This document shows, one piece after another, positions 55,643 through 61,395 of a stretch of 64,000 bases of DNA. The translations under genes were made by a program, and so were the position numbers. The DNA is from Candidatus Alloenteromonas pullistercoris (GTDB lineage: Bacteria > Bacillota_I > Bacilli_A > RFN20 > CAG-826): the NCBI GenBank assembly GCA_017694295.1, contig JADINA010000024.1, positions 5,295-69,294 of the forward strand, written 5' to 3'. The notes beneath the pieces are model-generated. The model was not told where the DNA came from and made no database searches. It saw only the letters and a list, made by a program, of their open reading frames with translations. How positions within the stretch are numbered: the first letter of the stretch is position 1; each line of letters begins with the position of its first letter.

Positions 55643-55900
55643 TCTGCAATTTTGAATATTGCAAAAGGGATCAAGACGTTGTCTATTGTCTTCTCGTTAT
55701 CGAAGATGAGCTGATCTAGCGGGCAACAGGAAACATATTCCTCGGCATATCTTTCCAAGTCATTTCAGCTTAGGGCTTCGCCATTTAGCTTAAGGGCGCC
55801 TTCAAACGATCTATCGCGGCCGGAAAGCATGGAGAGCAAAGTCGTTTTCCCCGTTCCGTTTTCCCGCGGAGGATGAACAAACCTCTTGATGGCAAATGCC
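55640..55900 (-). pseudogene. ABC-transporter ATPase gene remnant
   Basis: ENGTGKTTLLSMLSGRDRSFEG (decayed Walker A), in-frame TGA, then ...DQLIFDNEKTIDNVLIPF; no signature or Walker B. Confidence 0.65.
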
Positions 55901-55960
55901 CGCTCTCCTTCGCCTTTGTTTTGTTTGTCTTTGTTCAATAGGGTAAAATCCGCCATTGAT

Positions 55961-57049
55961 ATGAGAAGCGTTAATTTTGAAAAGATAACAAACTTCCGTG
56001 ATTTAGGTGGATACGAATCCCGTTATGGCGAAACGAGCTTTGGGGTGCTTTATCGCTCGGGAAGGCTTTACGGGGCTTCCAAATCCGATTTAAGGAAGCT
56101 TTCATCCATTGGATTAAAAACCATCATCGACATACGCGATGACGAAGCCAAATCCCAATGCCCCGACCCGATTGTCGAAGGGGTGCGCTTTATATCGCTT
56201 CCGGTCAATGGCAACGGCCGCATCCCCGTTGACCAAGACGACCAAGTCGATAGCTATCTTGAGATGCTTGAAGAGCCAAAGCAAGCCCGCGACGTTTTCC
56301 TTGCCTTGCTTAATTGCGAGAAACCGGCTCTTATCCATTGCAATGCCGGAAAGGACAGGACCGGGGTTTTCGTTTCCCTTCTTTTGCTTTTAAACGGCGT
56401 CAGCTTCAATGACGTCAACGCCGATTACATGGCTTCCTTTGCCTATTTGCTTGAGCTTGAGCGGCATGTTAAGGACGGGCTGACCGATATCCCCCCTTTC
56501 ATCATCGTTCCCGATCCATTTTATTTTGAAAGGTTTTATTCCGTCTTTTTGGAACGATACGGCTCGATTGAGGGTTATTTGGAGGCCATCGGTTTAAATG
56601 AGGATGACATCAAGGCCCTCGCCTCTTTGCTGGGGAAGCAGGAAAAATCCTGCGGCGCCGTCTTATTCAAAGATGGTAAGGTGCTAATCGAGCATATGGC
56701 TATGGGCCATTATTCGATACCCAAGGGCCATGTCGAAAGCTTCGATCTATCCGAAACCGATACTGCCAAAAGGGAAATAGAGGAAGAGCTCGGCCTTAAG
56801 GCGGAGATAATCCCTGGGTTTAGGGAAAGGATTGTCTATTCCCCAAGCGATGGGACAATCAAAGAAGTTGTCTTTTATTGCGCTAAAGCCAAAGACGGTG
56901 AGTTAACCCTTCAAAAAGAGGAAGTCGCCGACGCCTATTGGCTTTCGCCTGCCGACGCGATGAGGGTGCTAAGCCATGATAGCGATCGCCATATCGTCGC
57001 CAAAGCCAGCTATTTCGAAGCCGGCCCGAACGTCAAGAAGGTCAGCTGA
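55961..57049 (+). CDS. Fusion: Cys-dependent (PTP/DSP-like) phosphatase + Nudix hydrolase
   Basis: NFRDLGG, YRSG.L, HCNAGKDRTG (CX5R); then KSCGAV, PKGHVE...AKREIEEELGL. Confidence 0.88.
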   Translation: MRSVNFEKITNFRDLGGYESRYGETSFGVLYRSGRLYGASKSDLRKLSSIGLKTIIDIRDDEAKSQCPDPIVEGVRFISLPVNGNGRIPVDQDDQVDSYLEMLEEPKQARDVFLALLNCEKPALIHCNAGKDRTGVFVSLLLLLNGVSFNDVNADYMASFAYLLELERHVKDGLTDIPPFIIVPDPFYFERFYSVFLERYGSIEGYLEAIGLNEDDIKALASLLGKQEKSCGAVLFKDGKVLIEHMAMGHYSIPKGHVESFDLSETDTAKREIEEELGLKAEIIPGFRERIVYSPSDGTIKEVVFYCAKAKDGELTLQKEEVADAYWLSPADAMRVLSHDSDRHIVAKASYFEAGPNVKKVS

Positions 57050-57935
57050 ATAGCCTGATAAGCAAATCGCAGAATCCCTTAGGCTTCTCAAAAGCCGGCA
57101 AATGGCCGCAGTCGAATGGGTAAAATCCCTTTCGCGGCGCCTTGATATCTTCAAAATAGGCTTTGGCGACGGGGTAGGGCGTTATGAAGTCGTCCTTGCC
57201 TTGGCATATGAAAAATGGGATATCAAATTCGCGCGGCAAGGAAATCGCGCTTAAAGGCAGGCAAAGCCTTTCAAGCAGCTTTGTTCCTTTTCTCCAGCCC
57301 CTTTTTGCCCAAAGCGAATACTCGCCTGATTTGTAGAATGGGATGATTTCCCTTTCTTTGTAGCTCGGATAGTCCTTTGGCTCGAAGGCGGGGTAAAGAA
57401 GCGAATGGAAAAGCGCTTCTTGCTCCTTGGTTTCGAATACGCCGCCAATCGGCCTTTTAAGCCCGGCTTTCGCGACGTCGATTCGCTTGCTTAATTCTTC
57501 GTATTGCCAAAGGACGCTTTCCCTTGAACTGACGAACTGCCCATAGCCTAAGTAGGCATCGAAAAGCCCATTGGCTTTGGCTAAAGACAAAACGGAGATA
57601 GCCGATCCCCATGATTCGCCGACCAATATGATTTTTTCCAATGAGTAGCGGCTCTTTATCAGCCTCCCCCAAGCGAGGATGTCTTCGACATAGCTTTCGA
57701 TTGAATAATCGGCTTTCTTTGGGAACGCATGATAGGAGCCCCCGGTGCCGCGCTGATCATAGGCGCAGACTAGGAACTTATCGAAAAGCGGGCTCAATTT
57801 GTCTTTTATCTTGTGGCGGTTGGGATTGCCGGGCCCGCCATGGACGAAAAGCAGCCCGGTCTTATTTGGGATTCCAAAGACATGGGCGATTTGCCCTAAG
57901 CCGTTTATTTTAGCTTTGACCAATTCGTCTTTCAT
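57042..57935 (-). CDS. Alpha/beta hydrolase (proline-iminopeptidase-like)
   Basis: HGGPG, YDQRG.G, GESWG, G.DD, GH.P. Confidence 0.85.
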   Translation of the reverse strand: MKDELVKAKINGLGQIAHVFGIPNKTGLLFVHGGPGNPNRHKIKDKLSPLFDKFLVCAYDQRGTGGSYHAFPKKADYSIESYVEDILAWGRLIKSRYSLEKIILVGESWGSAISVLSLAKANGLFDAYLGYGQFVSSRESVLWQYEELSKRIDVAKAGLKRPIGGVFETKEQEALFHSLLYPAFEPKDYPSYKEREIIPFYKSGEYSLWAKRGWRKGTKLLERLCLPLSAISLPREFDIPFFICQGKDDFITPYPVAKAYFEDIKAPRKGFYPFDCGHLPAFEKPKGFCDLLIRLFS

Positions 57936-58813
57936 TTGGCTTTCTTCATTAGGTAGGCGGCGTAGTGGGAGGCGACGTCGATGCCCGTTGTTTTCTCAAT
58001 GCCATCGATGAAGGCGTTGGAATTGACCTCGCAAAGTATCGGCTTGCCGTCTATACCCACCAAGATGTCAACCCCGGCATAATCAAGTTTTAGGGCTGTG
58101 GCGGCCTTCTCGGCCATCTCGATATAGGAAGAGGGGATCTCCACGTTATAGCCCTTTCCCCCTTGGGCGACGTTTGAGCGGAAGTCGGAATCGTTGTAGC
58201 GCATCATACCGGCCACGAATTTCCCCCCTATGACGATAAGGCGGAAATCCTTTCCTTTGCTTGAGGCGATGAAGCGCTGGTAAAGGCGGGGCTTTTGCCG
58301 GCTTTTGGCATCGAAATCAATCAATTCATCAAGGTTTTGCAAAAGGAAGACGTTGTTTCCAAGCGATCCATAGTTCAATTTGGCGACAAGGGGGAAGCCT
58401 AGTTCGTCCCCGATTCTTTTTAGGTAATCCGGGTCGGTTTCCTCAAAGGTGTAATTAAGCGGCGGGGCGATGGTCTTCGGCATGTCGATATGCAAACAGG
58501 ACAAAGCCAGATAGGTCATCATCTTGTCATCGCAAAGCTCGATTGAGCGGGGCGAGTTGAAAAGGCGGAAACCCTGCTTTTCCAATGCATAGGCGGCGTA
58601 GCGGTCTTTATCCAAATACAAGACGAAGGCGCATTCGCTTAGGATCGATGAAATGGATCCGTCATCTTCGATTTTTATAAACGCGTCCCCCGTCCTAAGC
58701 AAAGAAAGGTCAATGCCATATGGCGCGAGGGCTTCCTTCATCCTTTCCTGGAAATGCCTTACCCCCGGATAGAGGCGGTGCTGATTGACGATGGCGTAGG
58801 CTTTTTTCGGCAT
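57932..58813 (-). CDS. RimK-family ATP-grasp ligase
   Basis: DKM.TY, P.V.K...GSLG, D.R..V.G, FRSN...GG, GVDIL, CEVNS. Confidence 0.88.
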   Translation of the reverse strand: MPKKAYAIVNQHRLYPGVRHFQERMKEALAPYGIDLSLLRTGDAFIKIEDDGSISSILSECAFVLYLDKDRYAAYALEKQGFRLFNSPRSIELCDDKMMTYLALSCLHIDMPKTIAPPLNYTFEETDPDYLKRIGDELGFPLVAKLNYGSLGNNVFLLQNLDELIDFDAKSRQKPRLYQRFIASSKGKDFRLIVIGGKFVAGMMRYNDSDFRSNVAQGGKGYNVEIPSSYIEMAEKAATALKLDYAGVDILVGIDGKPILCEVNSNAFIDGIEKTTGIDVASHYAAYLMKKAK

Positions 58814-58875
58814 AAGGCAATTGTGGGGCTTTGCCTTTCCCTAATCAAGATGGCAACCACACTTCTATATATGTT

Positions 58876-58897
58876 CATAATTATGCTATTATTATGC
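58876..58897. promoter_or_regulatory. Putative operator/promoter of the antitoxin-domain nadE
   Basis: Palindrome CATAATTATG (58876-58885), repeated ATTATGC (58880, 58891), TATTAT -10-like hexamer (58887-58892); no SD before ATG 58902. Confidence 0.5.
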
Positions 58898-58901
58898 CGT
58901 T

Positions 58902-61052
58902 ATGAAGATATTGCCAATCACCGCCTTGCGCGACACCCAAAAGATCCTTGAGGAGGCCCTTAGCTCAGACGAGCCGATCCACATAAGCAAAAACGGGGCC
59001 GATTCGCTCGTCCTTATGAGCGAGGGCGTCTATTCGACTCTTGGTTATTCCCCTATAAGCAAAAAACCCGAATACGACCTCAGGCAAAGCAAAACCAAAA
59101 AAGAGGTTAAGGCGATCGAATATGGCGATCATGCCTCCTCACCGTTATCCGATCCCCTTGGCTTCGTCCGGGTAAGAAGCGCATCGCTTCGAATTAAGAT
59201 CGCCAACCCAAAAGCCAACGCCGAAAGCACGAAAACGAAGATCGAGGAGGCAATCGGAGACGGGGTTTCCGTGCTTTGCTTTCATGAGCTTTCCCTTTCC
59301 GGCTATACTTGCGGCGACCTTTTCCTCGATTCCTCGCTTTTGCGGGGCTGCTTGGAGGCTTTGGCCGACTTAACCGAGTTCTCCAAAGGCAAAGACATCG
59401 CCTTTTGCCTTGGCTTGCCTTTGGAAAGGAACCACACCCTCTATAACTGCGCCGCCCTTATTTGCCGCGGTTCGATACTGGGCATCGTCCCCAAACGGAA
59501 CATCCCCAACTACCAGGAATTTTATGAGGGGCGTTACTTCAAGCCTTATGAGGGGGATGATGGCTATATTGATATCAATGGGGTGCAAGTGCCCTTTGGC
59601 AACCACCTTATCTTTGTCGACTCTGCCTATCCGCTTCTTCGCCTTGGCATTGAAATATGCGAGGACCTTTGGGTGCCCGATTCGCCTTCGATCGGCCTTA
59701 GCCTAGCAGGCGCCAACCTCATCCTAAACCCTTCGGCCTCAAACGAGACGGTTGGGAAAGCCGAGTACCGCTCCTCCTTGGTTAGGATGACCTCGGCCAA
59801 GCTTTTGTCCGGATATGTCTATTGCGATGCCGGGGAGGGGGAGTCGACCACCGACTGCGTCTATTCCTCGCATCAGATAATCGCGGAAAACGGCGCAATA
59901 ACCTCCCAAACGGAATTGTTTTCGATGCAAGACGCGACCAGCGACATCGATTTGGAGAAGCTGCAAGCCGAGAGGCGGAAGATGAATAGCCTTAGCCAAG
60001 GGGATGAATATTCGAAAGTCTACTTCGCCCTTCCTTTGGTTAGGCCGGCTTCTTTGCTTCGCCATTACCCTAAAAACCCTTTCATCCCCGAGGGGGAGGA
60101 GGTGGATTTAGACAGGGTCAAGGAAGTCCTAACGATGCAGGTGGCCGGGTTAAGAAACCGCCTATTGGCTATCAATTGCCGCAAAGCCATCGTTGGATTA
60201 AGCGGCGGGCTCGATTCGACTTTGGCCTTGCTCGTCGCCGTTGAGGCCTTCAAGTCCCTCAATTACCCCTTAACCGGGATCACGGCTTTGACCTTGCCGG
60301 CTTTCGGCACCTCGAAAAGGACCCACGACAACGCCGAATCCCTAGCCAAAAGCCTAGGCGTCGCCTTCCGGGAAATCTCGATAAAGGAGACGCTGCGGTC
60401 ACACCTAAAAGACATCGGCCACGACGAGGACAACCACAACGTCGCCTATGAAAACGCCCAAGCCCGGGAAAGGACGCAGGTGCTCATGGACATAGCCAAC
60501 GACGAAGGCTCGCTTATGGTCGGGACTGGGGACCTTTCCGAGCTTTGCCTTGGCTGGTGCACCTATAACGGCGACCATATGTCGATGTATGGGGTCAACG
60601 CCTCGATACCGAAGACGCTGGTCCGCTACCTATGCCGGGGATACGCTTTGCTGCATAAGGAGGCGGCTGGTCCGCTACTAGACATAATCGACACGCCCAT
60701 CTCCCCCGAGCTTTTGCCGACCAAGGATGGGGAGATCGCCCAAAAGACCGAGGACACGGTGGGGCCGTATGAACTTAACGATTTCTTCATCTACCATTAC
60801 CTCCGCTTCCGCTTCACCCCGGAAAAACTTCTCTATATTGCCGAAAAGGCCTATGAAGGCGTCTATGACCGGGCTTATATAAAGAAATGGCTTAAGGCCT
60901 TCTATCGCCGTTTCTACCATAACCAATTTAAGCGCAGTTGCCTTCCCGATGGGCCGAAAGTCGGCTCCGTCGCCATTTCCCCGAGGGGGGATTGGCGGAT
61001 GCCCTCCGACGCCGATTCGAAACATATCGAGGAGGAAATCGACGCCCTATGA
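58902..61052 (+). CDS. nadE: Glutamine-dependent NAD+ synthetase with N-terminal Phd/YefM antitoxin-like domain
   Basis: Nitrilase triad HELSLSGY / PK..IPNY.EFYE / EICEDLW; SGGLDST, ENAQARER, GTGDLSEL, FKRSCLPDGP. Extra N-terminus ILPITALRDT...EPIHISKNG...LVLMS...Y. Confidence 0.93.
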   Translation: MKILPITALRDTQKILEEALSSDEPIHISKNGADSLVLMSEGVYSTLGYSPISKKPEYDLRQSKTKKEVKAIEYGDHASSPLSDPLGFVRVRSASLRIKIANPKANAESTKTKIEEAIGDGVSVLCFHELSLSGYTCGDLFLDSSLLRGCLEALADLTEFSKGKDIAFCLGLPLERNHTLYNCAALICRGSILGIVPKRNIPNYQEFYEGRYFKPYEGDDGYIDINGVQVPFGNHLIFVDSAYPLLRLGIEICEDLWVPDSPSIGLSLAGANLILNPSASNETVGKAEYRSSLVRMTSAKLLSGYVYCDAGEGESTTDCVYSSHQIIAENGAITSQTELFSMQDATSDIDLEKLQAERRKMNSLSQGDEYSKVYFALPLVRPASLLRHYPKNPFIPEGEEVDLDRVKEVLTMQVAGLRNRLLAINCRKAIVGLSGGLDSTLALLVAVEAFKSLNYPLTGITALTLPAFGTSKRTHDNAESLAKSLGVAFREISIKETLRSHLKDIGHDEDNHNVAYENAQARERTQVLMDIANDEGSLMVGTGDLSELCLGWCTYNGDHMSMYGVNASIPKTLVRYLCRGYALLHKEAAGPLLDIIDTPISPELLPTKDGEIAQKTEDTVGPYELNDFFIYHYLRFRFTPEKLLYIAEKAYEGVYDRAYIKKWLKAFYRRFYHNQFKRSCLPDGPKVGSVAISPRGDWRMPSDADSKHIEEEIDAL

Positions 61053-61101
61053 GTTTTTATATATCCCTTAATTGGTGTAAAGTTTGTTAACGGAGGAATT
61101 T

Positions 61102-61395
61102 ATGGCAGCGAAAACAAAGGAGACGGAAAAGGCCAAACCAGCCGAAGAGGCGAAACCCAAGGACAAGACCAAGGTTTACCATATCGCCAAAAGGGCGAGC
61201 GATGGGATGTGGTCGATAAAATTCGCCGGGGGCGAGAAGGTCATCAAGCTTTTCAAAACCAAGGAAGAGGCCATGGCCTATGGCGACTCGGTCGCCGGGA
61301 ACCAAGGCGGAATCGTCTTGGTCCACGCCTCGAAAGGGGCCAAAGCCGGGAAGATCCAAAAGCAGAAGTCCAGCGGCAAGAAAAACATAAAGTAA
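61102..61395 (+). CDS. DUF2188-like small basic protein
   Basis: YH......G.W..K..G....K.F.TK.EA......A......VH pattern; Lys-rich termini; SD GGAGG. Confidence 0.7.
   Translation: MAAKTKETEKAKPAEEAKPKDKTKVYHIAKRASDGMWSIKFAGGEKVIKLFKTKEEAMAYGDSVAGNQGGIVLVHASKGAKAGKIQKQKSSGKKNIK

Follow-up and report, generated by a model that had tools for sequence, protein, structure and literature searches.

The nadE gene of Candidatus Alloenteromonas pullistercoris encodes the essential enzyme nicotinamide adenine dinucleotide (NAD+) synthetase and lies within the window, the 64,000-nucleotide (nt) stretch of contig JADINA010000024.1 (assembly GCA_017694295.1) that was analysed. The host genome is a metagenome-assembled genome of an uncultured, small-genome member of the Bacilli, in an order whose genomes range from 0.8 to 2.4 Mb. 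The nadE open reading frame (ORF; 58902-61052, + strand) is open for 716 codons and specifies a protein of three parts: an N-terminal domain resembling that of the Phd/YefM antitoxins, a lysine-rich linker, and the NadE enzyme itself. Immediately upstream of the ATG lies an array of three 12-bp units that resembles the operator of a toxin-antitoxin (TA) operon (Table 1).

Table 1. Features of the nadE locus (window coordinates; aa, amino acids)
Feature	Position	Strand	Basis or remark
Operator-like array, three 12-bp units, before nadE	58863..58898	.	Sequence and inverted-repeat search
Array unit 1, TTCTATATATGT	58863-58874		Degenerate
Array unit 2, TCATAATTATGC	58875-58886		Perfect 10-bp palindrome CATAATTATG at 58876-58885
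Array unit 3, TATTATTATGCC	58887-58898
Candidate -10 element TATTAT, within unit 3, 9 nt before the ATG	58887..58892	+	Inferred
Alternative candidate -10 element CATAAT	58876-58881	+	Inferred
N-terminal Phd/YefM-type dimerisation and DNA-binding domain (predicted), aa 1-47	58902..59042	+	Pfam, AlphaFold2, Foldseek, conservation
Met39 ATG, start in the public record, inside β3	59016..59018	+	P0157 record
Lys/Ser/Asn-rich, disordered, variable linker, aa 48-85	59043..59156	+	Model confidence, ortholog comparison
Glutamine-dependent NAD+ synthetase body, complete, aa 86-716 and stop codon	59157..61052	+	NCBIfam, Pfam, 3dla alignment

The enzyme portion of the protein is complete. Its match to the NCBIfam model NF002730 (NAD(+) synthase) scores 779.9 bits (cut-off, 473) over aa 86-714 (profile positions 10-671 of 677). 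Within it, Pfam recognizes the glutaminase domain (PF00795, CN_hydrolase; aa 90-357) and the synthetase domain (PF02540, NAD_synthase; aa 413-580). An end-to-end alignment with the NadE of Mycobacterium tuberculosis (3dla; 477 bits over aa 87-714) places the glutaminase triad E129/K198/C253 and the SGGLDS P-loop (434-439) opposite the matching residues of that enzyme. In the full-length AlphaFold2 (AF2) model, the NadE body begins near aa 87 and the N-terminal domain (N-domain) remains folded; between them, the predicted local distance difference test score (pLDDT) falls below 50 at aa 48-70. This linker is ~38-39 aa long in the window protein. Among 27 orthologs it varies from 23 to 43 aa (median 28); it is rich in Asn, Ser and Lys, and its sequence is not conserved. 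The fusion protein is the sole NadE of the 1.42-Mb, 87%-complete assembly. An earlier note on this DNA, made from the letters alone, had described a Phd/YefM domain, a lysine-rich linker and an intact glutamine-dependent NadE with no toxin gene alongside; since the Pfam, NCBIfam, 3dla and neighbouring-gene results agree, that description is judged accurate.

The N-domain was assigned by sequence profile and by fold. Pfam family PF02604 (PhdYeFM_antitox) matches aa 1-44 over profile positions 1-45 of 74 with an E-value of 4.5e-6 and 26.8 bits, and a second search with the N-domain of the window gave 27.9 bits (E ~2e-6); the curated cut-off is 29.8 bits. The same family is matched at E ≤ 0.01 by 23 of 25 orthologous N-domains (best 3.3e-8), and for two relatives (P0004 and P0005) it is already called in precomputed annotation. 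When a profile of the aligned N-domains was compared with PDB sequences, none was matched at E ≤ 0.01 and five were matched at E ≤ 10, all of them Phd/YefM-type antitoxins. For this reason, structural comparison was relied upon. For aa 1-62, an AF2 model based on 25 orthologs has a mean pLDDT of 82 and the order β1-α1-α2-β2-β3-α3 (strands at 2-5, 26-30 and 34-38; helices at 6-10, 12-21 and 41-46). In a Foldseek search of the PDB, the top 43 matches to this model are all N-domains of Phd/YefM/RelJ-type antitoxins, with target-normalised template-modelling (TM) scores from ~0.4 (full-length chains) to 0.78 and root-mean-square deviations mostly of ~1.7-2.5 Å. Among these matches are the operator-bound Phd structures 4zm2 and 4zlx and the YefM-YoeB complex on 26-bp DNA (6l8e). 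Thus, as modelled, aa 1-47 belong to the Phd/YefM N-domain fold.

Conservation within this domain is concentrated at particular positions. Among the aligned fusion orthologs I3, P5, I6, L9, R10, N31, G32 and V37 are invariant and T12, P25 and K30 nearly so, while in close relatives residues 1-12, residues 25-32 and an S.V.MSE..Y motif are all invariant. R10 is identical in 25 of 25 orthologs. It corresponds to R10 of YefM by position alone, as the HMMER alignment ended short of this residue, and K30 is aligned with YefM R31, the Arg of the "ITR" motif (2a6q). In YefM, R10 and R31 are essential for operator binding (PMC4803016).

A question that must be settled for such a domain is where translation begins. 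The public NCBI/UniRef protein of this contig (P0157) has 678 aa and starts at Met39 (MSEGVYSTL; 59016-61052), and no Shine-Dalgarno sequence is present before 58902. Both observations would suit a gene that is translated from Met39 or later, with codons 1-38 persisting only as a 5' leader left by a decayed antitoxin; the earlier note, too, had considered a downstream start near the nitrilase domain. However, this explanation is highly improbable. The ratio of nonsynonymous to synonymous substitution rates (dN/dS) for codons 2-38 is ~0.22 in comparisons with the L003 and L014 orthologs; L014 compared with L015 gives 0.11. Synonymous sites are nearly saturated, and the invariance of residues 1-12 in close relatives is likewise at odds with a noncoding remnant. 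Furthermore, the domain begins with an ATG in every ortholog, a stop codon lies a few codons upstream, and many of these starts are preceded by GGAGG. A Shine-Dalgarno sequence is absent ahead of 59016 as well. Judged by these substitution patterns, the N-domain is translated and under purifying selection. Because residue 39 is Leu in several orthologs and codons 1-38 are conserved, the Met39 start of the public record is most likely miscalled. That start conceals the Phd/YefM domain, so annotation pipelines are likely to overlook the architecture in some records.

The regions upstream of the fusion genes cannot be aligned with one another, except for a palindrome array with a 12-bp period whose consensus is ACATAAnAATGT and ACATAATTATGT as adjoining units. 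Between 1 and 30 nt separate the array from the ATG, in genomes of 26-53% GC. Of 27 fusion loci, 19 have a consensus site (≤ 2 mismatches, ≤ 60 nt from the start), compared with 0.06 expected from the remainder of the same loci, although the corresponding binomial figure overstates independence because the motif was derived from the loci being counted and the lineages are related. Most fusion operators have an exact TGTACA at the junction between units. The exact 13-mer GTACATAATTATG occurs at nadE in all nine relatives that have it and is unique in the genome in eight of the nine. Where nadE is unfused, in three genomes of the family, no such site precedes the gene.

The array also overlaps the likely promoter. 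A consensus promoter scan of the nadE upstream region flagged no σ70 promoter on the + strand, and thus the -10 elements of Table 1 are putative. Similar TAnAAT-like hexamers occur 6-9 nt before the ATG, again with no Shine-Dalgarno sequence, in L003, L004, L006, L008, L011, L020 and L028; other loci have GGAGG. Since the candidate -10 element is so close to the ATG and a Shine-Dalgarno sequence is lacking, there are hints that nadE mRNA may be leaderless or near-leaderless. On the - strand, a promoter-like match (TTGGCA-18-AATAAT, 58917..58888) that at best equals shuffled controls overlaps operator unit 3 and faces the divergent RimK-like gene (57932-58813), a gene that is not conserved in relatives.

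The origin of the array is suggested by the stand-alone Phd-like genes of the same family, which are ordinary TA pairs in which a ParE toxin gene overlaps the antitoxin gene downstream. Those stand-alone antitoxins that are nearest to the fusion domain share its operator: a perfect ACATAATTATGT is present in L055 and ACATAATTATGCTATAATTATGTC in L065, and the L053 antitoxin has a GCATAATTGTGCTATAATTATGTC operator together with a ParE-like ORF downstream. In contrast, stand-alone antitoxins more distant from the fusion domain have different repeats. Thus, the motif tracks the domain rather than the gene that follows it. The YefM operator of Escherichia coli consists of paired TGTACA palindromes, 12 bp from centre to centre, positioned over the -10 box, and the Phd operator consists of two palindromes 13 bp apart (PMC1802561). 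As far as can be read from the DNA, the geometry of the fusion operator matches that of these characterised operators.

Genome-wide profile searches reveal how widely the fusion is spread. A long NadE is encoded in 31 of the 101 genomes of the window's family, and the N-domain is present in 26 of these 31 within a frame of 698-735 aa; it is also present in G072, where the frame is broken by the contig end. Three genomes of the family have an unfused nadE (frames of 637-638 aa), and one further NadE is a fragment. One member of this family is labelled Erysipelotrichaceae by NCBI. Of 301 genomes from across the order, at least 85, in four families, have the fusion. In a class-wide sample of 401 genomes, no fusion was found beyond the order; the strong matches to the N-domain there are all stand-alone ORFs of 63-131 aa. 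With the domain profile, 2,653 of 1.84 billion representative proteins were matched at E ≤ 1e-3. The 150 top-ranking matches are mostly antitoxins of 60-160 aa, or fragments, of a single subfamily with the pattern MPQIxPIxDLxNT.EIS..CH...EPIFITKNGYGD.V.MS.E.YE, and ~15 of the 150 continue into NadE. (When aa 1-88 were used as the query of a word-based search, only 4 clusters were obtained, so the distribution is seen through the profile searches of whole genomes.) Because the fusion is order-wide and only stand-alone ORFs were met outside the order, the fusion is, by its distribution, an innovation of this order, made from a common Bacilli antitoxin subfamily.

Several metagenome proteins add to this picture. 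N-domains of the same subfamily are joined to other C-terminal parts in P0118, P0151, P0153, P0122, P0006, P0012 and P0028; the parts include fragments of a radical S-adenosylmethionine (radical-SAM) protein, a pyridine-nucleotide oxidoreductase and a DUF4368 protein, as well as a Pol-beta-type nucleotidyltransferase, and tandem double N-domains also occur. These joins may be true captures of a cassette, or they may be chimeras of assembly or gene calling. In two other metagenome proteins, P0078 and P0085, which are orthologs of the NadE fusion, the catalytic Cys of the glutaminase is replaced by Gly and the SGGLDS loop is intact. Such enzymes may depend on ammonia or may be altered in some other way.

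Given this ancestry, the fusion protein might still be an antitoxin. In that case, either the N-domain or linker would neutralise the product of a toxin gene at another locus, or the fusion would be a TA module in which the NadE body acts as the toxin. The nearest relatives of the domain are, after all, genuine ParE-linked antitoxins, and the toxins that pair with Phd-type antitoxins belong to many families. Yet a residual antitoxin function appears very improbable indeed. The toxin-binding C-terminal half of the antitoxin (Pfam positions ~46-74) is absent from the fusion, its place being taken by the unconserved linker, and the NadE body retains all of its catalytic residues and is the genome's only such enzyme. 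No toxin gene is found among the neighbours of nadE, which are the divergent RimK-type ATP-grasp gene, a DUF2188 gene and a GtrA gene, and a search of the 87%-complete genome for ParE-family toxins (PF05016) gave no match. The fusion N-domain is the sole Phd-like sequence of its own genome. Because a toxin and a toxin-binding region were both looked for and both found to be absent, the window gene, as far as its sequence and surroundings tell, falls outside the class of type II TA systems.

These observations are best accommodated by a capture event. The nadE gene has probably acquired a promoter-operator-N-domain cassette from a ParE-type TA operon and would now repress itself. In the ancestor of the order, these three elements of a Phd-ParE operon would have been placed together ahead of nadE, with the toxin and the toxin-binding tail being lost. 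In the present-day protein, dimers of the N-domain, held on a flexible tether of 23-43 aa, would bind the 12-bp-periodic ATGT/ACAT array over the nadE -10 element (58863-58898) and block RNA polymerase, and the level of NadE would thereby feed back negatively on its own transcription. We infer both the DNA binding and the repression from sequence and predicted structure. The avidity that the toxin provides in TA systems would presumably be supplied by oligomerisation of NadE. The earlier note had proposed that a TA-derived module was grafted onto NadE, and the predictions that this makes at the level of sequence are borne out in the fold, the purifying selection, the order-wide fusion, the operator and the link to ParE operons.

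A different explanation is that the N-domain has been kept for a role that does not involve DNA, either as a handle for dimerisation or oligomerisation or as a protease-sensitive degron; the palindromes would then be an inherited promoter or a site for some other factor. Phd/YefM N-domains do dimerise and antitoxins are typically labile to proteases, and the operator found in the window is partly degenerate. However, conservation of the array extends beyond a -10 hexamer and is maintained across genomes of widely different GC content, and the array accompanies the domain ahead of downstream genes that are unrelated to one another. The fusion retains basic residues that match YefM R10 and R31, and the NadE of M. 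tuberculosis (3dla) oligomerises without any such domain. A function unconnected with DNA is therefore improbable, if less so than a residual antitoxin or a Met39 start.

Certain observations nevertheless weigh against capture of a self-repression cassette. The Pfam score of the window copy is below the curated cut-off. The operator of the window is itself degenerate, having one good unit, TCATAATTATGC, and two weaker ones, and promoter sequence could account for part of an AT-rich palindrome located over a -10 element. The unfused control genes are few (n=3), and the loci in which the motif was counted, as noted above, are not independent. In addition, it is assumed that a domain tethered to a large oligomer can reach and bind the DNA.

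If the capture did take place, the NadE body might have assumed the place of the toxin as co-repressor. The oligomer would hold several N-domain dimers, giving cooperative occupancy of the array above a threshold concentration, and a substrate or product (nicotinic acid adenine dinucleotide, ATP, glutamine or NAD+) or the state of assembly would tune the avidity, making NadE a "trigger enzyme" that senses NAD. More broadly, the promoter-operator-N-domain unit would constitute a portable self-repression cassette that could land on other genes. This extension of the autoregulatory model is tentative, and on balance doubtful.

One NadE of the same family, in G032 (L066:163-2241, - strand; 692 aa), has an N-terminal helix-turn-helix (HTH) domain of the HTH_3/XRE type (40.9 bits) instead of the Phd-like domain. 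The protein database contains no further HTH-NadE fusions beyond the G032 cluster. As an isolated case, it gives weak support at best to a regulatory reading. The glutaminase domain of this protein has Gly at the position of the catalytic Cys (AIEIGDD).

Whether the operator motif marks a larger regulon was examined by searching 12 related genomes with ≤ 1 mismatch and the window's own genome with ≤ 2 mismatches. The sites recovered lie within genes, beside unrelated genes such as trpS-like and dnaG-like ones, or between dnaA and rnpA, and none is at an NAD gene; apart from the copy at nadE, no promoter-proximal copy is present in the own genome. A wider regulon was thus rejected, and autoregulation of a single target was retained. 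The second-best match in the own genome, ACATAATTTTGT (G000 C38:29869-29880), lies in the AT-rich dnaA-rnpA intergenic region beside a DnaA-box-like TTGTCCACA and is most likely due to chance.

No nicotinate phosphoribosyltransferase (PncB) is seen in the 87%-complete assembly, and a NadD-like match is sub-threshold only (a 381-aa frame, C9:21770-22330). The 3H domain of the regulator NiaR is not found in the genome, and consequently self-repression may be the sole control on the last step of NAD synthesis. In the vicinity of nadE, the DUF2188 gene (61084-61395, + strand), 32 nt 3' of nadE, encodes a Lys-rich protein of 103 aa. At 55886-57049 (+ strand), 1.9 kb upstream of nadE, is the gene for a 387-aa protein in which a tyrosine phosphatase domain of the Y_phosphatase3 type is fused to a NUDIX domain. 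This protein also has weaker matches to PTP-NADK and PTP-SAK, phosphatase families fused to NAD kinase, and may be connected with the metabolism of NAD or of nucleotides.

No published description of a Phd/YefM-NadE fusion was found in the literature searched, in keeping with the earlier note, whose author knew of none; automated Pfam tables do list all three domains together for some relatives. To our knowledge, there is no earlier case of a Phd/YefM DNA-binding domain working outside a TA pair, or of NadE acting as its own transcription factor. If the proposal is correct, the locus illustrates a concrete route by which parts of selfish elements become regulators of core metabolism, with the promoter, operator and repressor head apparently taken as one unit, in small genomes in which NiaR, the usual NAD regulator, is lacking. 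The fusion would also be a natural experiment on TA autoregulation, in which an oligomeric enzyme replaces the cooperativity driven by a toxin.

The systems most similar to the fusion in its N-terminal part are the YefM/Phd/Axe antitoxins (PF02604; yefM-yoeB, phd-doc, axe-txe). The N-terminal fold is common to both, and the basic residues R10 and R31 of YefM have counterparts in R10 (by position) and K30 of the fusion. As at the fusion loci, YefM/Phd operators are tandem short palindromes, ~12 bp apart, that lie over the -10 element and often have a TGTACA core. The nearest kin are Phd-type antitoxins of ~85-90 aa that are encoded with ParE-like toxins in Bacilli, and an identical operator is found with the closest homologs. 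The fusion differs from all of these in having neither a toxin gene nor a toxin-binding tail and in carrying, in cis, a core metabolic enzyme of 630 aa as its C-terminal partner. Presumably, it also lacks the toxin-dependent conditional cooperativity of type II TA systems.

In its enzyme part, the fusion corresponds to the NadE of M. tuberculosis (3dla, 3syt, 6ofc), with which it shares the full-length body, the triad and the P-loop. The M. tuberculosis homolog is an octamer. Unlike the fusion, it begins at the nitrilase domain and has no N-terminal extension.

The combination of an enzyme with a repressor also has established precedents. NadR of enterobacteria, which comprises an HTH domain, an NMN (nicotinamide mononucleotide) adenylyltransferase and a ribosylnicotinamide kinase, senses NAD and controls nadA, nadB and pncB. 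It shares with the fusion both the enzyme-repressor logic and the NAD pathway; however, the fusion has a Phd/YefM fold in place of the HTH and a different enzyme, and its sole detectable target is its own promoter. PutA and BirA are trigger enzymes that repress their own or pathway genes, a role like the one proposed for the fusion. PutA binds DNA through a ribbon-helix-helix domain, a fold that also occurs in other antitoxin families. The folds and pathways of PutA and BirA differ from those of the fusion, as do the switches, which are membrane association for PutA and the co-repressor biotinyl-AMP for BirA. The architecture and operator of the NadE fusion are consistent with a place in the class of enzyme-repressors to which NadR, BirA and PutA belong.

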